Notes under the pieces: model-generated
Told to the model about the DNA's origin: nothing
Databases searched by the model: none
Seen by the model: the letters and a program-made list of their open reading frames with translations, nothing else
Source: Candidatus Oxydemutatoraceae bacterium
GTDB taxonomy: Bacteria; Pseudomonadota; Gammaproteobacteria; Poriferisulfidales; Oxydemutatoraceae
Length of the DNA: 64,000 nucleotides
Direction: 5' to 3'
Assembly (NCBI GenBank): GCA_965220085.1
Contig: CBDCOZ010000003.1
Span: 782,979 to 846,978 of the forward strand
Part shown: positions 1-53,098 of the stretch, piece after piece
Layout: every line of letters begins with the position of its first letter
How positions within the stretch are numbered: position 1 is the stretch's first letter
Program-made: the position numbers and the translations under genes

Positions 1-2164
1 GGGACAGACGGCGGCAACGGTGAGTGTCGAAGTGCGCGGGCGCAAAGCGCCTTCGGCGGCCGCAGCAGCCGCCAAGCGAGCCAAGGCCGACAAACCGCGA
101 GTGAAAAAGAAACCGACATCGGCGACCGCCGGGTCGCCGCCGGCAAAGACTCCGGCAACCTCCAAGCCCAAGAAGAAAGCGGCGGCGAATAAAAAGCCCG
201 ATTCGTCGGCGCAGAAAAAAGCGCCCCAAGACGCTTCAAAGAAGGAAGCGAAGCCGTCTGATACGGCAAAGAAGCCGGTCGAGCGCAGACAACTGCGGAT
301 TGACGGCGCCAAGCGCAACAAGCGCAAGCCGAAGGAGCGTACGTTTGCTCCGCCGAAGCAGGTCAAGGTGGAAGGCACTCAGAAGCATGCGTTTGAAAAA
401 CCGACCGAGCCTGTCAAGCGCGCTGTGATGGTGCCGGAGAAGATTACGGTGGCCAATCTTGCGCAACGCATGGCGATCAAAAGCGGCGAGTTGGTAAAAC
501 TTTTGATGGACATGAATATGTTGGTCACGATTAATCAGGTGCTCGATCAGGATACCGCGATATTGGTCGTCGAGGAGTTGGGACATATTGCCAAGCCGGA
601 GAAGAGAGACGACACCGAAAAAGAATTGGCGAAGAAGATGGAAATGGAACCGGGGGTATTAAAAATCCGTCCTCCGGTCGTTGTCGTCATGGGGCATGTG
701 GATCACGGCAAGACCTCGCTGTTGGATTACATTCGCTCCACTCAGGTGACGGCCGGCGAAGCGGGCGGCATCACGCAGCACATCGGCGCGTATCATGTGG
801 AGACCGACCACGGCATGATCACGTTTTTGGATACTCCCGGGCACGAAGCGTTTACCGCGATGCGCGCGCGCGGCACCGGCCTGACCGACATCGTGGTGCT
901 GGTCGTTGCCGCCGACGATGGCATCATGCCGCAGACCATCGAAGCGATCGAACACGCCAAAGCCGCCGATGTGCCCATCATCGTCGCGCTGAACAAGATT
1001 GACAAAGAAGGCAGCGATGTTGAGAAAGTGAAGGGCGAACTCGCAAAGCACGGCTTGATTCCGGAGGATTGGGGCGGCGGCAATATGATGCTCGGAATCT
1101 CGGCCAAGACCGGGGAGAATGTGGACCATTTGCTGGAGGCGATCTCGCTGCAAGCCGAGATCATGGAGCTGAAGGCGAGCGAAGAGGGCGCGGCGGTGGC
1201 GACGGTCGTCGAGTCTTCCCGCGACAAAGGGCGCGGCGTGATGGTGACGGTGCTCGTCCATCGCGGCACTTTGAACAAGGGCGATATTTTGCTGGCCGGC
1301 GCGGAGTATGGCCGGGTGCGCGCGATGATAGACGAGCGCGGCAATGATTTGCAACGGGTCGGCCCGTCCCTTCCCGCCGTCGTATTCGGTCTGTCGGGGA
1401 CGCCGGATGTGGGCGAGGAAGCGGTGGTCGTCGATGGCGAGCGCCGGGCGCGCAGTGTCGCCGAGCAACGGCGCGAAAAACAACGCGCGATCCGGTTGTC
1501 GGTGACGCCCGCGCACGGCGAAGAGTTGTTCGGTATTTCGGCGCAGGACAAAAAGGAGTTGCGCATCTTAATCAGGTCCGATGTTCGCGGCACGGCCGAG
1601 GCGTTGCGCGATTCGCTTGAGAAAATCGTGAGCGATGAGGTCAAGGCGAATATCCTGTCCAATCTGGTCGGCGGGATTACCGTATCCGATATCAATCTGG
1701 CGGCGGCTTCGCGGGCGATGGTAATCGGTTTTAACGCGCGGGCGGATGCTCCCGCGCGCAAAGCCGCCGAAGCGCAGGGGGTGACGATTCGCTATTACGG
1801 GATTATTTATGAGTTGATAGACGACGTAAGGAAGATGATGAGCGATATGTTATCGCCCGAGGTCAAAGAGGAGATCGTCGGTCTGGCGACGGTCAAGGAT
1901 ATTTTCCGTTCGTCGCGTTTCGGCACGGTAGCGGGTTGTCGGGTCGTTGAGGGGATGGTCAGGCGCGGCAACCCGATTCGCGTGTTGCGCGATCAGATCG
2001 TCATCTTTGAAGGCGAACTGGAGTCCTTGCGCAGACATAAGGACGATGCCGCCGAAGTGAACGCGGGGACAGAGTGCGGCATTGCGGTGAAAGACTATAA
2101 CGACGTCAAGGTCGGCGATCAGATAGAAGTGTATGAGAGGATTGAAACGCCTCGTAATCTGTGA
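1..2164 (+). CDS. infB: translation initiation factor IF-2 (5' end probably lies upstream of the window)
   Basis: Lys/Ala/Pro-rich N-terminal region, G-domain motifs GHVDHGKTS and DTPGHEAF, C-terminal [24 protein letters not shown] close to E. coli IF2; followed by rbfA-truB. Confidence 0.95.
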
Positions 2165-2532
2165 TGGCGCTGCCGAATAGGACCGCGCGAGTCGCCAACA
2201 TGATGCGGCAAGAGATGACCATCCTCTTGCAACGCGAAATCCGAGACCCCAGACTGGCCGCCGTCGCCATAACCGATATTGAAGTGAGCGCGGACTTGTC
2301 GTCGGCGCGGGTCTATGTGCATGTCGCGGCGGGCGATGCGCGGGAAGCCTTGCGCGGCTTGGCCGCGGCGCAAGGTTTTTTCCGGAAAAGACTGTGTCAA
2401 TTGTCGCAACTTCGGGTCGTGCCCGAGATGCGCTTCAAGTTGGACGATTCCAAGATCAAGGCGCAACGCATTGAGGAACTGCTCAACGACCCGCGCGACA
2501 AAACGGTTGCGGATGAGGATGCGGCTTCATAA
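2161..2532 (+). CDS. rbfA: ribosome-binding factor A
   Basis: 123 aa; [23 protein letters not shown] RbfA signature; infB-rbfA-truB synteny; start overlaps infB stop (ATGA). Confidence 0.9.
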
Positions 2533-2534
2533 CC

Positions 2535-3407
2535 ATGGACGGTTTGCTGCTGGTTAACAAACCCTCCGGCATCAGTTCCGGCAAAGCGGTGGGCCGGGTG
2601 ATACGCCGTTTGGGCAAGGTCAAGGGCGGTCACAGCGGCACGCTTGACCCGCTTGCCGAAGGTTTGTTAGTCATCGGCTTGGGGTGCGCGACAAGAGCCT
2701 TGGGCCACCTTGCGGCGAAGCCCAAATGTTATCGCGCGACCGCTCGCTTGGGCGTGTCTACCGCCACCGGAGACCTGGAAGGCGCAATCGTGGCGCGGCG
2801 CGATTTTCACATGCCCGATCGGGAATGTTTGGCGTCTTTGTTCGCGGCATTGCAAGGCGAGATGTTGCAAACCGTGCCCGCCTATTCCGCGCTCAAGCAA
2901 GACGGCAAGCGGTTTTATGAGTTGGCGCGCGATGCGCAAGAGACGCCGCACCGGCAGCGGTGGGTGCGCATACATCGGCTGCAATTGCTCGCGGCGGAGA
3001 ACGACCGCATCTCGTTTGATGTCGAGTGCTCCAAGGGGACATATATACGCAGCCTTGCCGAGGACATCGGTCGCTACCTCAATACCGTCGCATGCCTTGC
3101 GCGGTTGCAACGCACCGCGATCGGCGCGTTCGCATTGGAGCAAGCATTGCCGCTTGATGCGATTGAGCAACGCTCGCAAGAGGAGATCGCCGCGGCTGTT
3201 CTGCCTGTGGATCAAGCCTTTTGCGATTTGCCGGCGGCGTATTTGGATGCGACATCGGCGGCTGCGTTTTGTCACGGTCAAACTGTCGCACCGGTCGGCG
3301 CGCCGACCGAGGAGCGGTGCCGAGTGTACGCCGCCGACAAACAGTTTGTGGGCGTTGCAAGCGCGAAGGACGGCCTGCTCAAACCGCTGAAGGTGCTCAA
3401 GCCCTGA
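2535..3407 (+). CDS. truB: tRNA pseudouridine(55) synthase
   Basis: LLVNKPSGISS...HSGTLDPLAEGLLVIGLG catalytic Asp motif; synteny. Confidence 0.9.
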   Translation: MDGLLLVNKPSGISSGKAVGRVIRRLGKVKGGHSGTLDPLAEGLLVIGLGCATRALGHLAAKPKCYRATARLGVSTATGDLEGAIVARRDFHMPDRECLASLFAALQGEMLQTVPAYSALKQDGKRFYELARDAQETPHRQRWVRIHRLQLLAAENDRISFDVECSKGTYIRSLAEDIGRYLNTVACLARLQRTAIGAFALEQALPLDAIEQRSQEEIAAAVLPVDQAFCDLPAAYLDATSAAAFCHGQTVAPVGAPTEERCRVYAADKQFVGVASAKDGLLKPLKVLKP

Positions 3408-3459
3408 TAGCCGCTGTGCGCCGGCAAACCGGACGGCGATAGTGCGAGCAGGTTACGAT

Positions 3460-3720
3460 GCCGTCCGCGCTTTGCGACATGGAAAGACCGTGCGCACGGG
3501 CTCCGATAGGCATCCGGGCTTTGCGACATGGCAAGACCGTGCGAGCGGGCTCCGATAGGCGGCGATAGGCGAGGGTGCCCGGGCTTTGGAACAACCGGAT
3601 TTCGCTAGGGCGATGCCGGCAACTGTTGCAAAATAGCGACACCGTATTTTCGGGCGAGCGGGTTGCGATAGGCGACGAAGGTCGTTGGGGCTTTGCGACA
3701 TGGCAAGAAGCGGGCGGCGA
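3460..3720. repeat. degenerate tandem repeats (~47 bp unit GGGCTTTGCGACATGGCAAGACCGTGCGAGCGGGCTCCGATAGGC, 2 full and 2 partial copies) where rpsO would normally sit
   Basis: direct reading: copies at about 3467, 3514, 3574 (partial) and 3688; units contain the GCGATAGGCG motif that resembles the family gene terminus. Confidence 0.6.
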
Positions 3721-3902
3721 TGCTGTCCTTCTGTGCCGCCATGCCCCCTAATCCGCGCGATAGCGCAAATCTCCGGCGGCGGAGCAGGGGAGTGTTATGG
3801 GGGCCGGCATAGCACACTGCAAGCCCTGTCTTGGCAAGGGTTTCAGGGCAACGCATCCCGCGCATTGCCATAGATACCGTGCAAGCGCCAATGACATATG
3901 AC

Positions 3903-3932
3903 ATTGCCCCACGTGTGCGATATGTCATGGCA
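3903..3932. promoter_or_regulatory. conserved ~30 bp element CATTGCCCCACGTGTGCGATATGTCATGGC with flanking ATGACATAT/ATATGTCAT inverted repeat; second copy at 54727-54757
   Basis: 27/31 identity between the two copies, each just upstream of a sigma70-like promoter. Confidence 0.45.
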
Positions 3933-3944
3933 TCATACATACGC

Positions 3945-3973
3945 TTGCACATGACACGAATTTGTGATATAGT
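3945..3973 (+). promoter_or_regulatory. sigma70-type promoter TTGCAC-17-TATAGT of family gene A
   Basis: same architecture, TTGCAA-16-TATAGT, found at 14973-15000 and 51114-51141 upstream of the paralogous loci. Confidence 0.6.
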
Positions 3974-4064
3974 GCGATACTCGTTGCTTGCTTAAATATA
4001 GGAGATACGGCAGACACTTGTAGATGACTTGCATTTTGCGTTAGAGTACATAGCATTAAACAAT

Positions 4065-4081
4065 CCACAAACAGTTTGTGG
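4065..4081. promoter_or_regulatory. perfect palindrome CCACAAACAGTTTGTGG in the long 5' leader; related CACAAACAA/TTGTTTGTG arms recur in the leaders at 15080-15245 and 51236-51262
   Basis: seen on direct reading; conserved between three leaders. Confidence 0.5.
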
Positions 4082-4172
4082 AGCACAATCGGTATTAAAT
4101 GTTGCTTGTGTGCATATACCGCATAGCTAAATTTATCAAAATTATTAGATACATGATATCAGGAGAGTAACT

Positions 4173-5760
4173 ATGAATTACAAATACTTTGGTATAACTA
4201 CCCCCCCCCCCCCCCCCCCCGCGTTGTCAGGGCAGGATAACCCGGCATAGCCTCTGGCCGCTCACTCTGCTGGCCCTGTTTGCGCTCTGCGCTCAGGCGC
4301 AAGCGCAGAACGCCACTGGCATGCCGGAGGTCACTTACGTCAGCGGCATAACCGTTCCCACTGAGGACTCCGCCATCACCGCATCTCAGGGCACCATAGC
4401 CGACCCGGACAATACGCCCACCACCACGGTCGGCGCCCTCAGCTGGCAGTGGAGCATGGCCGACACCAATGGCGGCACCTACACCGCCATCGCCATGGCG
4501 ACCAATGCCGCATTCACTCCGGGCGATGATGAGGTGGGCAAGTTTCTGCAGGTCTGCGCATCGTTCATGGATATGGCCACCACCCCCAATTCGGAGATGC
4601 GATGCCTGCAGATAGCCACCGCTGTGGCCAATGTCAATGACAAGCCGGTATCCATAAACACCAATCTTGTAGTAAATATAAACGCCGATGCCGACAGCCC
4701 TCATCCGCTTCGGGCATCCGACTTCCCGTTCACCGATGCCGACAAAGATATGCTGGCTGGTGTCATCATACATAGCCTGCCCAGCCACGGTACCATGAGT
4801 CTGGATGGCACAGCCCTGACCAGCGACGATGTTCCCACAGCAACCATAACCGTGGCCAAACTGGACGCTGGTGCCCTGACCTATTACCCGACACCAGCCC
4901 AGCGAATGCCGAGCTTCGCAGCAGTCTCCTTCTTCCAGGCCAGGGTGGTGGATGATGGCAGCGATGGCACCGACAACAAGACCAGCATTGGTGCCAACAT
5001 CCTTATCGTTCTGACATCGCCGGACCAGACTGCCGCCAGTGGTGCCCCCACCATAATCCCGTCCACCACCGCCGACAACCCGACCCACGCCGAGGATGCC
5101 CAGTTGACCGCCAGCAGCGATGGCATCACCGAGCCCAATGGCATAGACCGCACCACCCTGAGGTGGCAATGGCAGTCATCCCCCGCCAGCGATGGCGCTT
5201 TTGCAGCCATAAACGGCGCGACCGGGGTGCTATTCACCCCCCTGCAGGCGCATGTGGGCCAATACATCCGGGTCTGCGTCAGTTTCATGGATTTCCACGC
5301 CATGCCGGAGACTGTGGAGGGCCTGTGTTCCGCCGCCGCCCGGGTGCGCAACGTAAACGATGCGCCCCGGGCGCAAAACCGTACGATAAATGTGTCGGTG
5401 GATGCCACGATGAGCGAGCCTTTCAGGTTCGCCGTCGACGACTTTCCCTTTGCCGATGAGGACGATGACAACTTAGTCAACGTGGAGATTGCCAGCCTGC
5501 CGGGTGCCGGCACCCTGCAAATAAACGGCGCTGACGCCACTGTCGGCGATATCATAGAAGCCGATGACATAGACGACTTGGCGTACTATCCCGCCAGCCA
5601 GAATGCCCAGGCCGGCTACGCCGCCTTCACCTTCAAGGTAACCGACGATGGCAGCGATGGCAGCGGCAACAAAACTTCCGGCGCCGCCACAATCACCATC
5701 AATCTCACGGAGCACTTGCGCCTGCGCTTGCGCCTCTTTCTGGAAGGCCCGTTGCGATAG
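4173..5760 (+). CDS. secreted cadherin-like repeat protein, family member A; poly-C frameshift currently out of frame (ON would need 21 C); ends HLRLRLRLFLEGPLR
   Basis: signal peptide LWPLTLLALFALCAQAQA; two SWQWQ-type ~90 aa repeats; cadherin-like motifs NVNDKPV / NVNDAPRA / DDGSDGTDNKTS; paralogous to the genes at 15291-19725, 51346 and 53099. The track ORF 4321-5760 is the in-frame downstream part. Confidence 0.7.
4201..4220 (+). repeat. homopolymeric poly-C tract (20 C) between the ATG-led mini-ORF and the signal peptide of gene A
   Basis: RBS AGGAGAG, ATG 4173, 9 codons, then C20; signal-peptide frame (open from 4198) is +1 relative to the ATG with 20 C. Confidence 0.85.
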
Positions 5761-6016
5761 CGCGCGTACCGGCGGCGGGGTTGAGTGCGCGCATTGCGAC
5801 TCGGCAAAGCGCTCCGGCAGCGGCAACAAAACTTCCGGCGCCGCCACAGTTTCGGCGGTCGGCAGTCGGCGTTAGGGTGCGCTTTCACAGGGCGGTATTT
5901 CTGCCGCCGCCGCTATGACCGTGTGTGAAATCGCGGGCAGACATTGCTTTTGCAACAACTTTCATTGTTGCCGGACGGGGCGGGCATATGCGTCCTTTTC
6001 CCGCGTCAACGGCGGT

Positions 6017-6115
6017 TATCCTTGCGCGGGCAGCAATTCGGCGGTCGGCAGCGCTAAACCGCTCATTGAGAAGGAGCGCAGAGTTCCTTGCGCGGGCAGC
6101 AATTCGGCGGTCGGC
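6017..6115. repeat. 31 bp direct repeat TCCTTGCGCGGGCAGCAATTCGGCGGTCGGC x2, period 68; a related TTCGGCGGTCGGCAG lies at 5851
   Basis: direct reading. Confidence 0.6.
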
Positions 6116-6189
6116 GGCGCGGTTTGTACTATAATCATTTTAGCCATTCAGTTCATCTGATTATTTTCGTTTTGGATTTGGAGACGCAG

Positions 6190-6654
6190 ATGTTGTTATT
6201 TGTGTGCTCGCGCAATATCTGTCGCTCAGCTGTTGCCGAAGCAGTATTCAATTATATTTTGCAATCTTCGGGCCGAAGCCCGGCGGCGCAGTCCGCGGGC
6301 GCCCGCGCGGATTGCCCGGGAGAACCCGCCGATTCGCTTATGCGACAAGTTGCCGCGCGCCGCGGCTATGATTTGTCCGCGCATTCTTCGCGCGCGATGG
6401 ACAGCCTGTCGCCGTCCGACTTCTCGCATGCGTTTTGGCTCGATGCCTCCCAGCGCGACCCGTTGCGGCGCTGGGCGAGCGGCGCGGACATCGCCATCGC
6501 GCCGTTGATGCGCTACTCCGAGTATTATGCGACCGATGAGGTGTTGATGCCCGCGGCCGCTTCGGCGGCACACGGGTATGCGCTGATGTTGGATCAGGTT
6601 GAGGACGCGTGTCTCGGCTTGTGGCATCATCTCACAAAGGAAGGGGTGTTTTGA
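6190..6654 (+). CDS. low molecular weight phosphotyrosine protein phosphatase
   Basis: CX5R(S) P-loop in LLFVCSRNICRSAVAEAVF, with DSAG-like region downstream; about 154 aa from ATG 6190. Confidence 0.7.
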   Translation: MLLFVCSRNICRSAVAEAVFNYILQSSGRSPAAQSAGARADCPGEPADSLMRQVAARRGYDLSAHSSRAMDSLSPSDFSHAFWLDASQRDPLRRWASGADIAIAPLMRYSEYYATDEVLMPAAASAAHGYALMLDQVEDACLGLWHHLTKEGVF

Positions 6655-14499: not shown

Positions 14500-14567
14500 T
14501 AAGTTGCAACAAAACAGGCAAAGAGAACTCATCTCGCTAAGGTTGATTCTTTTTGGTTGTCTCCTCT

Positions 14568-14768
14568 GGCGGCGCCGAACTTTGGCGCCGCCCTTTTTAA
14601 GCGTCTCCGGCGGCGCCGAACTTTGGCGCCGTCTTTTGGGTTGTCTCTTCTGGTGGCACCGAACTCCGGTGCCGCCTTTTTTGGTTGTCCCCTCCGATGG
14701 CACCCGAACTCCGGTGCCGCCCTTTTTAAGCGTCTCTGGTGGCACCGAACTCCGGTGCTACCTTTTTA
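14568..14768 (+). terminator. array of five tandem REP-like GC-rich hairpins, each followed by a T-run, giving multiple intrinsic terminators
   Basis: GGCGGCGCC-GAACTTT-GGCGCCGCC+CTTTTT at 14568-14597, then four more (two subtypes, GGCGGCGCC and GGTGGCACC stems) near 14608, 14652, 14696 and 14738. Confidence 0.7.
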
Positions 14769-14972
14769 GGGCCTTTCAGACTTGACTCCGCCCGGCAACA
14801 ACGGAAGTTGTTGTAAAACGGCGACATTTCATCGCTATTTTGACGATGGTCATAGCGGCGAGGGCAGCAATACCGCTGTGCCGCGATACCCCTAAACCCG
14901 CACCATAGCGCGAATTCCCGCCAGCGGAGAAGGGGAGCACCGGGGGGTGTGCGAGGGGTGAGACAGATACGC

Positions 14973-15000
14973 TTGCAAATGATCGAATGTATGGTATAGT
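14973..15000 (+). promoter_or_regulatory. sigma70-type promoter TTGCAA-16-TATAGT of the tandem paralog array
   Basis: same architecture as 3945-3973 and 51114-51141. Confidence 0.6.
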
Positions 15001-15290
15001 GCGACACTAAGCGTTATATGTACGCAAACAACTCAAGAAGTCACAAATAAAAATATCATTTGTGCCTCATTAAAAGTTGTTTGTGTACATTAAACAATCC
15101 ACAAACAATGGAGTTGTTTGTGTACATATAACGTATAATTGAATTTTCTAAACATAGGAGATACAAACATTTGCAGATGACTTGCATTTTGTGGCAGGGC
15201 ACACAGCAGTAAACAATCACAAACAACGGAGTTGTTTGTGTGCATATGCCGCACAACTGTATTCGCTAGAAACAGGAAATACGAACCATT

Positions 15291-16183
15291 ATGAATAATT
15301 ACATGAATATAAATATATCTAATACCCCCCCCCCCCCCCCCCCCCCCCCCCGCATTGGCGGACAGCACTAACTCGGCTTAGTCTCCGGTCACTTATCCTG
15401 CCGGCCCTGTCTCTGGCATTGGGCGCAACCCATGTTTGGGCCCAGACGAGCAAGAGTGTTAATGCCCCTGTTGGCGGCGGCACATATTATTTCACCGCCG
15501 CAGATTTCGGATTCTCCTCAGGTGTCATCGTGTTTGAGTCGTTGCCCGCTCGTGGCAACTTCCAGCGATACAGTAACGGAAATCCCGCGGCTATCATTCC
15601 AGGGATTATCGACGACCACCAAGCCACCCATTTCTTTGCCGACGCCTTTGGCGGTGCCGGCTCCGACGACAGGTTGGAGTACAGGACTCCTGCCGATGCT
15701 GTTTCCATCGCCACTGGCTATACCAGCTTTATCTACCAACATTCTGCTGACGGTGGTATCACCCGCACCATGTTCACCATGACCATCAACCTGGCGGGGG
15801 CATCCACGCCGACGGCCGCCAGCGGTGCGCCCACAATTGCCGCCACAGACACGCACCGGATTAGAGCTTCCATCACCGGTGTGACGGACCGCAACGGCAT
15901 TGATGTCGGCACCCTGAGTTGGCAGTGGCAACAGGCCGCCGCACCTGCCAGCGGTGTTCCTGAAACCGATGACTATGACGACATAGAGGATGCTACTTCC
16001 TCCCTCTTCGCACCGACTGCCGCCCAACTGAGCAGGTATGTGCGCACCTGCGTTTCTTTCAAGGATCAGTCTCCCACGCCCGCATCGGAAGGGCCGCTGT
16101 GTAGCGCCGGCCTTCGGGTGACAGAGTTGCCGTCTGAGATACGCTTGCGGTTGCGCCTCTTCCTGGAGGGCCCCCTGCGATGA
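15291..16183 (+). CDS. family member C1 (first gene of the five-gene array); poly-C currently out of frame
   Basis: track ORF 15419-16183 plus the upstream frame open from 15323; ends ELPSEIRLRLRLFLEGPLR. Confidence 0.7.
15325..15351 (+). repeat. poly-C tract (27 C) between the mini-ORF (ATG 15291) and the signal peptide of array gene 1
   Basis: the ATG frame hits a stop at 15369 with 27 C; 26 or 29 C would fuse it to PHWRTALTRLSLRSLILPAL. Confidence 0.85.
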
Positions 16184-17064
16184 TGCGAGTACTCCGCCCC
16201 TTCCCGCATTGGCGGACAGCACTAACTCGGCTTAGTCTCCGGTCACTTATCCTGCCGGCGCTGTGTCTGGCATTGGGCGCAACTTATGTTTGGGCCCAGG
16301 CGACAGATCAGAGCATTGATGTCCCGATAGGCGGCAACGCCTATACCATCACGGCTGCCGACTTTGGCTTTGATGATATCACTGCCGGAAGCGCCCTTAC
16401 GATCATGACGGTCGGGTCTTTGCCTGCTCTCGGCAACTTACAGCGATACACAGGTGGGAATCCTGCGAATCTGCGTTTGGCTTCTGACCCAAATGCAAGT
16501 ACTTTCTTTGAAACAGGTCTTGGCGGTCTTGACGGCGCCGGCTCCGACGACAGGTTGGATTATACGCCTCCTGCCGATGCTGTTTCCGTTGCCGCCGGCT
16601 ATGCCAGCTTTGCCTTTCATATTTCCACCGATGCTATTACCGATACGATGGCCACCATGACCATCAACCTGGTGGGGGCATCCACGCCGACGACCGCCAC
16701 CGGTGCGCCCACAATCTTCGCCACGGACACGCACCAAATCAGAGCTTCCATCACCGGTGTGACGGACCTCAACGGCATTGATGTCGGCACCCTGAGTTGG
16801 CAGTGGCAACAGGCCGATGCCCCCGTCAGTGGCGTTCCCGAAACCGGTGATTACATCGACATAAAGGATGCTACTTCTTCCTCCCTCTTCGCACCGACTG
16901 CCGCCCAACTGAGCAGGTATGTGCGCACCTGCGTTTCTTTCAAGGATCAGTCTCCCACGCCCGCATCGGAAGGGCCGCTGTGTAGCATCGGCATTCTGGT
17001 GACAGAGTTGCCGTCTGAGATACGCCTGCGGTTGCGCCTCTTCCTGGAGGGCCCCCTGCGATGA
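16180..17064 (+). CDS. family member C2 (own signal peptide MMRVLRPFPHWRTALTRLSLRSLILPALCLALGATYVWAQA)
   Basis: ATGA start/stop overlap with C1; GGAGGG in the conserved terminal codons acts as its SD; conserved C-terminal half. Confidence 0.8.
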   Translation: MMRVLRPFPHWRTALTRLSLRSLILPALCLALGATYVWAQATDQSIDVPIGGNAYTITAADFGFDDITAGSALTIMTVGSLPALGNLQRYTGGNPANLRLASDPNASTFFETGLGGLDGAGSDDRLDYTPPADAVSVAAGYASFAFHISTDAITDTMATMTINLVGASTPTTATGAPTIFATDTHQIRASITGVTDLNGIDVGTLSWQWQQADAPVSGVPETGDYIDIKDATSSSLFAPTAAQLSRYVRTCVSFKDQSPTPASEGPLCSIGILVTELPSEIRLRLRLFLEGPLR

Positions 17065-17960
17065 TGCGAGTATTCTGCCCCTTCCCGCATTGGTGGGCGA
17101 TACTAACTCGGCTTAGTCTCCGGTCACTTATCCTGCCGGCGCTGTGTCTGGCATTGGGCGCAACTTATGTTTGGGCCCAGGCGACAGATCAGAGCATTGA
17201 TGTCCCGATAGGCGGCAGCGCCTATACAATCACGGCTGCCGACTTTGGCTTTGATGATATTATCAATACTGGAGCCTCCGATACGATTATGACGGTCGGG
17301 TCTTTGCCTGCTCTCGGCAACTTACGGCGATACACCCGTGGGCGGGTTGTAACTTTACGTGTGGGGAGCCTGACAGATGGCGACACGAGTGTAAGTGCTT
17401 TCTTTGAGACAGGCTTTAACGGTCTTGATGGCGCCGGCTCCGACAACAGGTTGGATTATACGCCTCCTGCCGATGCCGTTTCCGTTGCCGCCGGCTATGC
17501 CAGCTTTGCCTTTTATATTTCCACTGATGGCAGTACCGATACGATGGCCACCATGACCATCAACCTGGTGGGAGCATCCATGCCGACGACCGCCACCGGC
17601 GCGCCCGAAATCGCCGCCACAGACACGCACCGAATCAGAGCTTCCATCACCGGTGTGACGGACCTCAACGGCATTGATGTCGGCACCCTGAGTTGGCAGT
17701 GGCAACAGGCCGATGCGCCCGTCAGCGGTGTTCCCGACACCGGTGATTACATCGACATAAAGGATGCTACTTCTTCCTCCCTCTTCGCACCGACTGCCGC
17801 CCAACTGAGCAGGTATGTGCGCGCCTGCGTTTCTTTCAAGGATCAGTCTCCCACGCCCGCATCGGAAGGGCCGCTGTGTAGCATCGGCATTCTGGTGACA
17901 GAGTTGCCGTCTGAGATACGCCTGCGGTTGCGCCTCTTCCTGGAGGGCCCCCTGCGATGA
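17061..17960 (+). CDS. family member C3
   Basis: same as C2; variable N-terminal half, near-identical C-terminal half. Confidence 0.8.
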   Translation: MMRVFCPFPHWWAILTRLSLRSLILPALCLALGATYVWAQATDQSIDVPIGGSAYTITAADFGFDDIINTGASDTIMTVGSLPALGNLRRYTRGRVVTLRVGSLTDGDTSVSAFFETGFNGLDGAGSDNRLDYTPPADAVSVAAGYASFAFYISTDGSTDTMATMTINLVGASMPTTATGAPEIAATDTHRIRASITGVTDLNGIDVGTLSWQWQQADAPVSGVPDTGDYIDIKDATSSSLFAPTAAQLSRYVRACVSFKDQSPTPASEGPLCSIGILVTELPSEIRLRLRLFLEGPLR

Positions 17961-18838
17961 TGCGAGTATTCCGCCCCTTCCCGCATTGGTGGGCGATACT
18001 AACCCGGCTTAGTCTCCGGTCACTTATTCTGCCGGCGCTGTGTCTGGCATTGGGCGTAACCTGGGCGCAGGCTCAAACTGCCCAGGACCGCAGTGTTGAT
18101 ATCCCCATAGACAGCGATGGTCATCCGTTGCGACTTGCCGATTTCGGGCCTACCTCATCTGCCTCAGGTATAGTTATAATCAAGATCAAGTCGCTACCCG
18201 CTCGTGGCAGCTTACAGCGATACAGTAGTGGAATTCCTGTGCTGCTCGTTGTTGGGGATTTTATCCACGGCAACACAAGCTTTTTCACTTTCTCAACCCT
18301 TGGCGGTGCCGACGCCGATGACAGGTTGGAGTACAGGCCTCCCGCCAATGCTGGTTCCCCCGCCACTGGCTACGACAGCTTTGTCTTCCATTATTCTGTT
18401 GACAGTGGTTTCACGGCCACCACGGCCACCATGACCATCAACCTGGTGGGGGCATCCATGCCGACGACCGCCACCGGCGCACCCACAATCGCCGCCACAG
18501 ACACGCACCGAATCAGAGCTTCCATCACCGGTGTGACGGACCTCAACGGCATTGATGTCGGCACCCTGAGTTGGCAGTGGCAACAGGCCGATGCCCCCGT
18601 CAGCGGTGTTCCCGACACCGGTGATTACATCGACATAAAGGATGCTACTTCTTCCTCCCTCTTCGCACCGACTGCCGCCCAACTGAGCAGGTATGTGCGC
18701 GCCTGCGTTTCTTTCAAGGATCAGTCTCCCACGCCCGCATCGGAAGGGCCGCTGTGTAGCATCGGCATTCTGGTGACAGAGTTGCCGTCTGAGATACGCC
18801 TGCGGTTGCGCCTCTTCCTGGAGGGCCCCCTGCGATGA
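17957..18838 (+). CDS. family member C4
   Basis: same as C2. Confidence 0.8.
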   Translation: MMRVFRPFPHWWAILTRLSLRSLILPALCLALGVTWAQAQTAQDRSVDIPIDSDGHPLRLADFGPTSSASGIVIIKIKSLPARGSLQRYSSGIPVLLVVGDFIHGNTSFFTFSTLGGADADDRLEYRPPANAGSPATGYDSFVFHYSVDSGFTATTATMTINLVGASMPTTATGAPTIAATDTHRIRASITGVTDLNGIDVGTLSWQWQQADAPVSGVPDTGDYIDIKDATSSSLFAPTAAQLSRYVRACVSFKDQSPTPASEGPLCSIGILVTELPSEIRLRLRLFLEGPLR

Positions 18839-50984: not shown

Positions 50985-51030
50985 CGCCGCCCGCCGCCCC
51001 TGCGTCTGCGCCTTTTCCTTCAAGATCCTT
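50985..51030 (+). pseudogene. orphan remnant of a family-gene 3' end (..RRRPPPLRLRLFLQDP..)
   Basis: degenerate copy of the LRLRLRLFLEGPLR terminus, followed by a leader homologous to 3745-4172. Confidence 0.55.
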
Positions 51031-51113
51031 GCAATAATGCGGGTATCCTGCGGCAGAGAAAGGGAGTATTATGGGGCGCAAACAAGGGGAGCGAGGCAGG
51101 ATACGGAGGCGCT

Positions 51114-51141
51114 TGCAAATGACTTGCTTTGTGGTATAGTG
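51114..51141 (+). promoter_or_regulatory. sigma70-type promoter TTGCAA-16-TATAGT of family gene B
   Basis: near-identical to the 14973-15000 promoter. Confidence 0.6.
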
Positions 51142-51345
51142 CGCCAAAGGAGGGAAACAATGAGCAATTTAACTCTTGCAAATAACTTGCGCCTTGTGGC
51201 AGAGTACAGCACTCAGAGTACGGCACTAAACAGCACACAAGCAGCACTCAGTTGTTTGTGGTTTCTTGAGCGTTGCTTGTGTGCATATACTGTGCAACTG
51301 CATTTGCTAGAAACAGGAAATACATGCCATAAGGAGTAATAGATT

Positions 51346-52612
51346 ATGAATAGACAAGACTTTAATACTACCCCCCCCCCCCCCCCCCCCCCGCGCTATG
51401 TAAAGGTAAGGGGACTGCGGTCGCTTGGCTGTATTGCCTCGCCACCCGCTTTCTGCAAGTACTTCGCCCCTCCGCATTGGCGGGCAACGATGATGCGGCT
51501 TAGCCTCTGGTCGCTGGCCCTGTTCGTCCTGTTCGCCGTCTGCGCTCAGGCGCAGGCGCAAAATGCCACCGGCATACCCGATGTCACCTACGCCAGCGGC
51601 ATAATCGCTCCCACCGAAGATTCCGCCATCACCGCCAACGGCGGCAGCGGTTCCACCGCCATAGCCGACACCGATGGCCTGGGCACTTTCAGTTGGCAAT
51701 GGAGTGCGGCCGATACCAACGGCGGCGCCTACGCCGACATCGCCATGGCGACCAATGCCGCCTTTACTCCGGGCGATGACGAGGTGGGCAAGTTCCTGCG
51801 CGTCTGCGCATCTTTCACGGATAACGCCGGCAACAACGAGGAGCGTTGCCTGCGGATAGCCACCGCCGTGGCCAACATCAACGACAAGCCGGTGCCTATC
51901 GCCAACACAATTTCGGTGAGCACCGCCGCCGATGCCGACAATCCCTATGTCTTCTCTGCGGATGACTTTCCATTCACGGATGTGGACGGCGACATGCTGG
52001 CGGGCATCGAAATAGCCGCCCTGCCAGGAAGAGATTCTACAGCCGGGCCAGGCAGTCCGGGCACCCTGGCATTGAACGGAACGGCCTTGACCGCTGTCCC
52101 CGCAAGCACCATCACCGTAGCCCAACTGGAGGCCGGCGCTCTGACCTATTACCCGCCAGAGGGCGAGCAACCCACCAACCCCAATGACCCCATTGCCAGA
52201 TTAGCCTTCTTCGGCTTTGATGTGGTGGACGATGGCAGTGATGGCAACACCAACAATGTCAGCAATGTGGGCAGAATCATAGACATACGACTGGTGTCGG
52301 TGAGTCAGACTGCCGCCAGCGGCAGACCCAGAATAGCAGTGCTGAATGTTCCCGCCAATATCCACACCCACGCTGAGGGCACCCAACTGAGAGCCGACAC
52401 CGGAGACATCGTCGAACCCAACGGCATAGACCGCAGCACTCTGGAGTGGCAATGGCAGTCATTCTCTGTCGGCGATGGTGTCTTTGCCGACATAAGCGGC
52501 GCCACCGGAGGCGCATTCACCCCGGGCCAGGCCCATGTGGGCATGCGCATCCGCGTCTGCGCCAGTTTTATGGACAATCACGCTATGCCGGAGACTGTGG
52601 AAGACCTGTGCT
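51346..52612 (+). pseudogene. family member B; family homology stops at ~52612, and the frame then runs on into unrelated sequence
   Basis: identical to gene A up to ...HAMPETVE(G/D)LCSA; after that the track ORF 51346-53094 becomes R/H/P/Q-rich nonsense, while the +1 frame encodes an OMP-like C-terminus. Confidence 0.5.
51371..51392 (+). repeat. poly-C tract (22 C), here in frame: MNRQDFNTT-P7-...-MMRLSLWSLALFVLFAVCAQAQA
   Basis: ATG 51346 with RBS AAGGAG; the open frame continues through the tract. Confidence 0.85.
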
Positions 52613-53056
52613 CCGCCTCTATCCGGCAACAGCAGCACCCTGGCGGCCGCCGATGCCTCCATCAACGAGATATCCATAGATGCCCAACTGCGCTATACCA
52701 AAGACAATCTGATGCCCTTTGCCAGCATAACCGCCCGCAAACTTGGTGGCGACCTCAGCCAATCCTTGGCGATGGATCTCAGATTCGGCGCAGACCTGCA
52801 GACCAAACCCGCCACCATCCGCCTGTCCATAATCCGCCAGATAAACGACACCACCCACAAACGCGACAGCCTGAGTCTGGACATAGCCACCAGGCCCAAC
52901 CGCAGCGGCATAACCGCCAGCCTCGGCAGCCGCTACGACAGCATAACGGGCCGCCCACAGTGGCACAGCCGCCTGGGCTGGCAATACCGAAACTTCCAGA
53001 GCTCCCTGCAGGCATCGCCAGACGACTGGCGACTGCAAGCCCGGGTGCGCTGGTAA
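52535..53056 (+). CDS. C-terminal fragment of an outer-membrane beta-barrel protein (beta-signal ...DWRLQARVRW), +1 out of frame with gene B
   Basis: alternating hydrophobic pattern with a terminal aromatic; no start or signal peptide of its own. Confidence 0.45.
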   Translation: MWACASASAPVLWTITLCRRLWKTCAPPLSGNSSTLAAADASINEISIDAQLRYTKDNLMPFASITARKLGGDLSQSLAMDLRFGADLQTKPATIRLSIIRQINDTTHKRDSLSLDIATRPNRSGITASLGSRYDSITGRPQWHSRLGWQYRNFQSSLQASPDDWRLQARVRW

Positions 53057-53098
53057 TCCGGGCGCAAGCCCACTCATCCATCAACCATACATAGGAGT

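Follow-up and report, generated by a model that had tools for sequence, protein, structure and literature searches.

Within the window, a 64,000-nucleotide stretch of contig CBDCOZ010000003.1 from a Candidatus Oxydemutatoraceae bacterium, three loci encode secreted proteins of one family behind a poly-C tract that sets their reading frame, and each locus opens with a homologous, largely non-coding leader. Judged by their sequence, these leaders look like duplicated copies of one promoter-and-start module. The reading we favour, and consider probable, is that the leader is a duplicated promoter-and-5′-untranslated-region (UTR) cassette serving transcription and translation initiation of the poly-C loci, and that it has spread with the gene family. 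A first-pass annotation of the same DNA had instead described an attenuator or RNA switch with mutually exclusive stems, or an operator for a dedicated regulator.

The leaders compared here, leader 1 (3731–4172), leader 2 (14876–15290) and leader 3 (51015–51345), together contain four copies of a short hairpin (Table 1). They are mutually homologous by alignment, dot-plot and blastn, with 73–84% identity per block and large insertions and deletions between blocks, in agreement with the homologous blocks that the first-pass annotation had placed at the three loci. All three loci share one orientation, and 3′ of each leader the order is the same: Shine–Dalgarno (SD) sequence, ATG, a mini-open reading frame (mini-ORF), the C tract and a signal peptide that belongs to a paralogous secreted protein. 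The homology is unbroken from a decayed gene end through promoter, UTR, ATG and poly-C tract to the signal peptide. The leaders are AT-rich islands (35–43% GC, versus 57% for the whole window), and GC content in the ATG-to-poly-C stretch is 12–24%. Short motifs are over-represented in the window: TTGTGTGCATATRCYG has four matches versus 0.10 expected by chance, CGCTTGCAMATGA three versus 0.47, and CACAAACAR eight, seven of them inside the leaders, versus 0.99.

At the aligned position of each leader, the promoter scan finds one plus-strand σ70-like site (P1), composed of TTGCAC or TTGCAA, a spacer of 16–17 nt and TG-n-TATAGT. Set against a −35 element near TTGACA, a spacer of 16–18 nt, a −10 element near TATAAT and a TG one base 5′ of the −10, P1 fits a σ70 promoter with an extended −10, with nine of 12 hexamer positions matching and TG at −15/−14 in all three leaders. 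At the sequence level, the scan thus bears out the shared promoter TTGCA(A/C)-16/17-TATAGT that had been proposed 5′ of the poly-C switch. The 5′ UTRs predicted from P1 are ~193 nt (leader 1), 284 nt (leader 2) and 199 nt (leader 3) long, and not a uniform ~250 nt as had been stated.

Downstream of P1 lies a second box (box 2), which reads as a decayed second copy of P1, referred to here as P2. It aligns with P1 over ~45 nt (18 of 22 matches) with a spacer of 18 nt, the hexamers at its −10 position are the decayed forms TAGAGT, CAGGGC and CAGAGT, and the scan calls it a promoter in none of the three leaders. The conservation of this box had been noted correctly, but for only two of the three leaders; the copy at 51175–51192 in leader 3 makes it three of three. 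Box 2 contains a 7-4-7 direct repeat, CTTGCAN-ATGA-CTTGCAT, located at 4017, 15170 and 51175; the repeat also occurs at 51112, in P1 of leader 3, and in partial form in P1 of leaders 1 and 2. It has seven matches in the window, all in the leaders, versus 0.63 expected. A σ54 reading of TGGCAG...AGCA in box 2 was ruled out by eye, its spacing being off by one and the motif being missing from leader 1.

The block 5′ of each promoter can be aligned with the ends of true family genes, over their stop-codon region and 3′ flank. The remnant in leader 1 is 79% identical to that in leader 2 (14876–14937) and 84% identical to that in leader 3 (51046–51076), and it also aligns with the true gene ends at 5728–5800, 19693–19760 and 54425–54530; in leader 3 the block retains a readable translation, PLRLRLFLQDPCNN (LRLRLFLQDP). 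That the leaders begin in the remnant of a gene 3′ end, as first proposed, is therefore upheld and extended to the family’s own gene ends. The 3′ flank of the last gene of locus 3 (54458–54530) continues into a mutated copy of the −35 region, which gives the ancestral order as gene, flank, promoter, leader, gene.

Common to the three leaders are a 21-nt box, GTTGYTTGTGTGCATATRCYG, and an inverted repeat, CACAAACAA/TTGTTTGTG. The conserved box that had been noticed just before the ribosome-binding site (RBS) is present in the leaders, as the 21-nt box and CAACTG. Seventeen of its 21 positions are invariant in the three loci, where neighbouring sequence is ~75% identical, and a fourth copy keeps 18 of 21. 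As for the palindrome said to end each leader, the inverted repeat is conserved but the exact palindrome CCACAAACAGTTTGTGG is limited to locus 1; locus 2 has CACAAACAA-n3/5-TTGTTTGTG and locus 3 has CACAAGCAG-n7-TTGTTTGTG. Copies of the box and inverted repeat occur in both orientations, four in leader 2 and two each in leaders 1 and 3.

The layout of these elements is specific to each locus. Leader 2 contains an internal 118-bp tandem duplication (15100–15168 and 15218–15286, 78% identity), and its inverted box copy (15011–15034) is 96% complementary to 15111–15133. The first of the two units is complete in leader 2, collapsed in leader 1 (3983–4008) and represented in leader 3 only by an SD and ATG after P1 (51147–51162), where the arms at 51233–51292 form an 18-nt inverted pair that is 89% complementary (repeat search). 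A ‘ATAGGAGATAC’ (AGGAGATAC) box before P2 corresponds, by repeat-family match, to the RBS-proximal ‘ACAGGAAATAC’ box. The 21-nt box and the inverted repeat probably belong together as a single small element, which would be an mRNA hairpin for stabilisation or processing or else a protein-binding site, and we infer that it is not a ligand- or ribosome-sensing switch.

Between the ATG and the C tract is an AT-rich mini-ORF of 8–12 codons. The C counts that keep the downstream gene in frame are 19 or 22 at locus 1, 25 or 28 at locus 2 and 19, 22 or 25 at locus 3, and only locus 3 is in frame, on the assumption that the homopolymer lengths are as assembled; runs of 20–27 C are uncertain in an assembly. 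The only other assembly of the strain, Logan contig L047, stops at 4083, 5′ of the locus 1 tract. With a homopolymer inside an ORF near its start, the length of which sets the downstream frame, the three loci classify as candidate simple-sequence contingency loci of the translational phase-variation type. The family proteins give only weak matches, to cadherin-like and ZirU-like domains; the contig, 2,046,636 bp long, carries at least 30 paralogues, and almost all end in ...RLRLRLFLEGPLR.

Table 1 Features of the three leaders and start modules
Locus	Feature	Position	Strand	Basis or remark
1	Decayed 3′ end of a family gene (stop region GCGATAGCGC) with G-rich 3′ flank	3731–3803	+	Alignments
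1	P1: TTGCAC, 17 nt, TG-a-TATAGT	3945–3973	+	Promoter scan, alignments
1	Box 2/P2: CTTGTAG-ATGA-CTTGCAT and −10-like TAGAGT	4017–4047	+	Alignment
1	TAAACAAT, then palindrome CCACAAACAGTTTGTGG	4057–4081	+	Sole stem kept in centroid fold
1	Box 3 (21-nt box), GTTGCTTGTGTGCATATACCG	4101–4121	+	Motif and repeat search; degenerate extra copy 3983–4000
1	SD AGGAG (4161–4165), ATG (4173), mini-ORF, 20-C tract (4201–4220)	4161–4220	+	Out of frame
2	Decayed gene 3′ end and G-rich flank	14876–14965	+	Alignments
2	P1: TTGCAA, 16 nt, TG-g-TATAGT	14973–15000	+	Promoter scan
2	First UTR unit	15011–15133	+	Repeat search (inverted pair, 23 nt, 96% complementary); fold z = −6.8
2	First unit, parts: inverted box copy 15011–15034; small hairpin 15039–15067; direct box copies 15075–15095 and 15112–15133
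2	First unit, hairpin CACAAACAA-TGGAG-TTGTTTGTG	15100–15122	+	
2	Box 2/P2: TTTGCAG-ATGA-CTTGCAT, −10 position decayed to CAGGGC	15170–15199	+	Alignment
2	Second UTR unit: TAAACAAT, hairpin CACAAACAAC-GGA-GTTGTTTGTG (15218–15240), box 3 (15231–15251), CAACTG, GCTAGAAACAGGAAATAC	15210–15282	+	
2	ATG, mini-ORF, 27-C tract (15325–15351)	15291–15351	+	Out of frame
3	Decayed gene 3′ end, still translating as LRLRLFLQDPCNN, and G-rich flank	51015–51105	+	Translation, alignments
3	P1: TTGCAA, 16 nt, TG-g-TATAGT	51113–51140	+	Promoter scan
3	P1 with SD AAGGAGG directly after and ATG 51160 (remnant first start module)	51113–51162	+	Promoter scan, ORF list
3	Box 2/P2: CTTGCAA-ATAA-CTTGCGC and CAGAGT (box 51175–51192)	51175–51205	+	Repeat search, alignment
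3	5′ arm GCACACAAGCAGC, proximal 3′ arm GTTGTTTGTGG (51251–51261), distal 3′ arm/box 3 GTTGCTTGTGTGCATATACTG (51272–51292)	51233–51292	+	
3	CAACTG, GCTAGAAACAGGAAATAC, SD AAGGAG (51331–51336), ATG (51346), mini-ORF, 22-C tract (51371–51392)	51295–51392	+	In frame

The source organism is an uncultured, deep-branching gammaproteobacterium with a genome of ~2.05 Mb, whose RpsA shares 84%, 78% and 68% identity with its counterparts in metagenomic relatives and no more than 57% with that of any named taxon. In the relative with 84% RpsA identity, truB is followed by 248 bp (L045 5231–5479) and then the phosphatase/hisC operon, the position of locus 1 in the window (3408–6190), and comEA is followed by a single terminator, ~240 bp (L046 4846–5085) and then galU, the position of locus 2 (14560–20192). 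Given these adjacencies, the leader-plus-gene units of loci 1 and 2 are absent from the relative, and the two loci read as insertions between conserved housekeeping genes in the source lineage only. No transposase was found near the insertions among the neighbours checked; the neighbours checked at all three loci are housekeeping genes and include no regulator or recombinase gene.

A distant relative (ENA ERZ25072196) has homologues of the family, some of them joined to autotransporter β-domains. These homologues (L039–L041) are preceded by ordinary intergenic regions of 82–157 bp in which, read by eye, there is no poly-C tract and no box, and at the L038 array neither a leader nor a poly-C tract nor a box occurs within 22 kb. 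Scanning a genome collection with GTTGYTTGTGTGCATAT returned 36 single matches in unrelated taxa, consistent with chance, and a 21-mer scan of a metagenome collection returned three, all apparently within unrelated coding DNA. The Logan contigs found via GalU and TruB come from the same strain and are 100% identical to the window. A literature search gave general analogues only, among them PMC2268961 for the variable lipoprotein families of Mycoplasma.

According to the model we favour, the cassette would be the non-coding front end of a lineage-specific, poly-C-switched, cadherin-like secreted family derived from autotransporters, arranged as the 3′-end remnant of the preceding gene with its G-rich flank, P1, the AT-rich 5′ UTR, the SD/ATG/mini-ORF module, the poly-C tract and the signal peptide. 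P1 would transcribe each locus with no need of an activator, and translation of the downstream gene or gene array would hinge on the length of the C tract. The UTR would be long, and its arms repeated, because one promoter-and-start module was duplicated in tandem and then decayed, leaving P2 as a decayed P1 and the multiple CACAAACAA/TTGTTTGTG arms as repeated copies of one short inverted repeat. The ‘alternative stems’ of the first-pass annotation would likewise arise because one arm is present in duplicated copies, and would not reflect a switch layout conserved among the leaders.

Several observations weigh against this model. Its evidence base is three leaders and four hairpin copies. The gene bodies of locus 2 cannot be aligned with those of loci 1 and 3 at the DNA level, yet its leader aligns at 78–82%, which points to constraint on the leader or to gene conversion, and the conservation of the 21-nt box exceeds what ancestry alone predicts (p about 0.05–0.1, a rough estimate). 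The hairpin shared by the leaders, described below, is well paired, with one double change from A–U to G–C and several G–U pairs that favour the plus strand. Whether leader conservation exceeds ancestry overall is a matter of mixed evidence: in favour of ancestry alone, aligned leader columns are 73–82% identical, close to the 73–78% of the adjacent signal-peptide DNA, and between loci 1 and 3 the 125-bp 3′ part of the leader is hardly more conserved (72.8%) than the gene bodies (70% over 1178 bp). The near-invariant 21-nt box, the two box orientations and the leader-confined 7-4-7 repeat speak for constraint or conversion, together with the locus 2 comparison, and may reflect a DNA operator or a small stabilising RNA hairpin.

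Of the rival explanations, a cis-acting RNA switch (attenuator, riboswitch or thermosensor) is highly improbable. In such a switch the CACAAACA 5′ arm would have two alternative TTGYTTGTG partners, one proximal and one distal 3′ arm, and the choice between them would control elongation or translation. The arms that this calls for are there: one 5′ arm and two candidate 3′ arms in each of leaders 1 and 3, and two 5′ and three 3′ arms in leader 2. The sole element common to all leaders is a stem with the 5′ arm CACAA(A/G)CA(A/G) and, as its 3′ arm, the start of the box, TTG(T/C)TTGTG. Across its four copies, 88% of cells are paired, versus 25–57% in slid registers, with a consensus energy of −10.85 kcal/mol (RNAalifold); one pair is changed on both sides, locus 1 being an A–C intermediate. 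The covarying pairs expected of a structured leader come down to this one compensatory pair, however. With only four copies to compare, the observed score is equalled in 190 of 500 column shuffles, and the covariation falls short of significance. Rfam 15 gives no match in the whole window at gathering thresholds; in E-value mode leader 1 has none, and leaders 2 and 3 match only microRNA-precursor models and one small-RNA model, on long hairpins and at 14–27 bits versus gathering scores of 50–140. No fold is shared by the three UTRs: folded from the predicted starts and compared with shuffles, leader 1 is less structured than its shuffles (z = +1.75), leader 2 reaches −6.8, driven by a locus-specific 24-bp inverted duplication, and leader 3 reaches −2.4. 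Leader 3 does have one weak plus-strand terminator-like site, a hairpin followed by GTTTCTTGAG (51236–51260), but the terminator scan finds none on this strand of leaders 1 and 2. Reading the sequence, we see no conserved stem covering the SD or AUG. A covariance model of the hairpin and box recovers only its four training copies from the window and 93 kb of relatives’ DNA (157 kb). There is no conserved upstream ORF in the leaders, where small ORFs differ in frame and extent and only leader 3 has an SD and ATG, which rules out a conserved leader peptide; in the frame common to leaders 2 and 3 over the box, non-synonymous changes outnumber synonymous ones (hand count). A terminator on the minus strand (hairpin then ATTGTTTA, flagged in leaders 1 and 2) was rejected, there being no plausible antisense transcript and weaker pairing in leader 3.

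Alternatively, the boxes could be DNA operators for a family-wide transcription factor that adds common regulation of every poly-C locus to the stochastic switch, which we regard as unlikely. The 7-4-7 repeat, with its 11-bp period and its overlap with a −35 element, might be bound by a winged-helix response regulator of the OmpR/PhoB kind, and the CACAAACAA/TTGTTTGTG inverted repeat and box, alternatively or in addition, by a dimeric repressor. The excess of 7-4-7 matches over expectation, the confinement of the motifs to the three leaders within the window, and box and inverted-repeat copies in both orientations and variable number, which suit protein sites better than a fixed RNA fold, all favour an operator, and the layout matches that of a Pho box, which is a resemblance and not a test. 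No regulator gene adjoins any locus among the housekeeping neighbours checked, however, P1 already looks activator-independent, duplication of the promoter accounts for the direct repeat, and the distance between the arms of the inverted repeat differs among copies (1, 3, 5 and 7 nt), an unusual pattern for a single dimeric binder. Very unlikely is a third explanation, that leader and gene 3′ end form a recombination substrate (conversion, cassette shuffling or copy-and-paste) and owe their conservation to recombination, not regulation. Each locus starts with a family gene-end remnant and is thus flanked by direct repeats of the LRLRLFLEGPLR-stop/GCGATAG region; in addition, loci 1 and 2 are inserted relative to the close relative, an inverted copy of the sequence 5′ of leader 2 lies 3′ of locus 1, tandem duplications cluster at locus borders, and the family combines conserved ends with variable middles. 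Against this stand the lack of a recombinase or transposase gene among the neighbours checked, the single orientation of the loci, the divergence of the leaders to 73–82% identity with many indels, which implies no recent homogenisation, and insertion boundaries that cannot be defined where the relative’s intergenic DNA does not align. Quite unlikely, too, is a combined scheme with the leader as the active component of a self-propagating cassette bounded by the 3′-end/GCGATAG sequence and the poly-C tract. Its inverted repeat, 21-nt box and 7-4-7 direct repeats would be bound by a recombination or regulatory protein encoded elsewhere in the genome, and this protein would seed new poly-C-switched loci between housekeeping genes and place at least 30 family loci under one environmental signal in addition to stochastic switching. 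An expression site of the site-specific-inversion type (fimS, vpma/vsp) does not fit: the strong inverted repeat of leader 2 (15011–15034/15111–15133) sits 3′ of P1 instead of flanking it, and the neighbours checked include no recombinase.

Further observations concern the leaders and their flanks. A conserved G-rich block (for example, GGAGAAGGGGAGCACCGGGGGGTGTGCGAGGGG) lies 20–140 bp 5′ of P1 (3780–3803, 14925–14960, 51050–51100 and 54470–54515); it shows partial complementarity to the C tract, and its several runs of G make a G-quadruplex conceivable. A 32-bp element (TTGCCCC..GTGTG.CGATATGTCATGGC) 5′ of P1 in locus 1 (3904–3935) has an 87.5%-identical copy at 54730–54761, where it precedes a P1-like promoter (GCGCTTGCAAAA...TATAAT; 54778–54812) of a redoxin/AhpC-TSA gene (54819–55394). 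Just 5′ of leader 2 are five tandem units of 41–45 bp (14549–14767), each of them a strong hairpin of the intrinsic-terminator type (GGTGGCACCGAACTCCGGTGCCGCC and then a T-rich stretch), which would strongly insulate the leader from transcription entering from upstream; the relative with 84% RpsA identity has one copy at this position. The segment 3′ of the locus 1 gene (5892–5978) is an inverted copy of 14788–14876, just 5′ of leader 2 (74% over 89 bp), and includes a CAACAAC-GGAAG-TTGTTG hairpin resembling the leader hairpin. Near-perfect tandem duplications at 3464–3560 (49 bp × 2), 19718–19951 (56 bp × 4.2), 55330–55874 (182 bp × 3) and 58511–59434 (156 bp × 5.9) extend over the 3′ ends of genes and the intergenic DNA next to them; a GCGATAG-like motif is present in several of the units, and the 56-bp array begins where the last family gene ends, at its stop codon. 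In leader 3 only, a 59-codon ORF with the SD AAGGAGG (51160–51339, the tail of the listed ORF 51037–51339) runs through the entire leader and ends 6 nt short of the main ATG; its translation, should it occur, would open the hairpin and might be coupled to the main start. The short-read contig L047 (window 845–4083, 100% identical) ends exactly at the palindrome CCACAAACAGTTTGTGGAG, a break probably caused by the palindrome or by the repeat common to the leaders.

Others concern the genes. The C-terminal sequence RLRLR(L/I/V)FLEGPLR is kept in almost all paralogues of the source contig and of two related NCBI contigs and is absent from the ENA-only homologues checked (L038–L041 included), some of which carry autotransporter β-domains instead; it may serve as a signal for export or anchoring, or as a recombination block at the DNA level. 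Locus 2 (15353–19725) comprises five tandem paralogous genes of ~295 amino acids each behind one leader and one poly-C tract. At their first junction an ATGA stop/start overlap was read (...GPLR-stop/MMRV...), and ORF coordinates imply 4-bp overlaps elsewhere; direct control by the C tract reaches only the first gene, so that the others may rely on translational coupling. The first gene of locus 3 (frame of 52481; 52600–53094) loses its frame after ‘...LCSAS’, and another frame of 52600–53094 reads as the end of a decayed autotransporter β-domain (‘...DDWRLQARVRW’-stop), like the C terminus of P0025, which suggests that the family derives from autotransporters and that the locus 3 copy is frameshifted or mis-assembled. 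On the minus strand (55767–57433), a gene for an MbnB/TglH/ChrH-type enzyme for modification of ribosomally synthesised and post-translationally modified peptides (RiPPs) adjoins a DUF2063 gene, and the two may form a small RiPP-like cluster.

As a duplicated promoter cassette, the leader marks the expression sites of the family, and P1 with the 21-nt box provides a simple marker for every such site in the genome. For annotators, a promoter cassette in place of a riboswitch would mean that control consists of constitutive transcription and a poly-C frame switch. The gene-end remnant and the absence of the cassette from the close relative document the expansion of the family into housekeeping intergenic regions. 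If the box and inverted repeat do bind a factor, deterministic control would be layered on stochastic phase variation.

The closest analogues appear to be the contingency loci opa and pilC of Neisseria and the 5′ cassettes of Mycoplasma lipoprotein genes, and the loci have no sequence relatives outside the lineage. With attenuator and riboswitch leaders they have in common a long 5′ UTR and competing complementary segments, and differ in having no Rfam match, conserved terminator, anti-SD stem, conserved leader peptide or common fold. The Pho box consists of two 7-bp direct repeats, 4 bp apart, at the −35 position and is bound by response regulators of the OmpR/PhoB type. The 7-4-7 repeat CTTGCAN-ATGA-CTTGCAT, which overlaps the −35 hexamer, is like it in layout only: its half-site differs from CTGTCAT, no cognate regulator is among the neighbours checked, and promoter duplication explains the repeat.

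In Neisseria, opa and pilC have their repeat tract within the signal-peptide coding region and occur as several unlinked paralogous loci with their own promoters. The loci described here are alike in that the tract that acts as the switch follows closely on the start codon, within or ahead of the signal peptide, the reading frame governs expression (one of the three loci is in frame) and many paralogues have homologous 5′ regions; here, too, transcription appears to be constitutive and control translational. They share no sequence homology with opa or pilC, and differ from them in the very long homopolymer (20–27 C) behind an AT-rich mini-ORF of 8–12 codons, in the 5′ UTR of ~190–280 nt that a duplicated promoter module would have produced, and in that one leader can head up to five translationally overlapping tandem paralogues. 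In Mycoplasma, the switch is a poly-A promoter spacer (vlp) or a Xer-like site-specific inversion in the 5′ UTR (vpma, vsp), unlike the present loci, which have no recombinase among the checked neighbours, lie in one orientation and have leaders only 73–82% identical. The vlp, vsp, vpma and vsa families of Mycoplasma are alike in placing a highly conserved 5′ cassette of promoter, UTR and signal peptide, common to all paralogues, before highly variable gene bodies, in forming tandem arrays and in switching by homopolymers or recombination.

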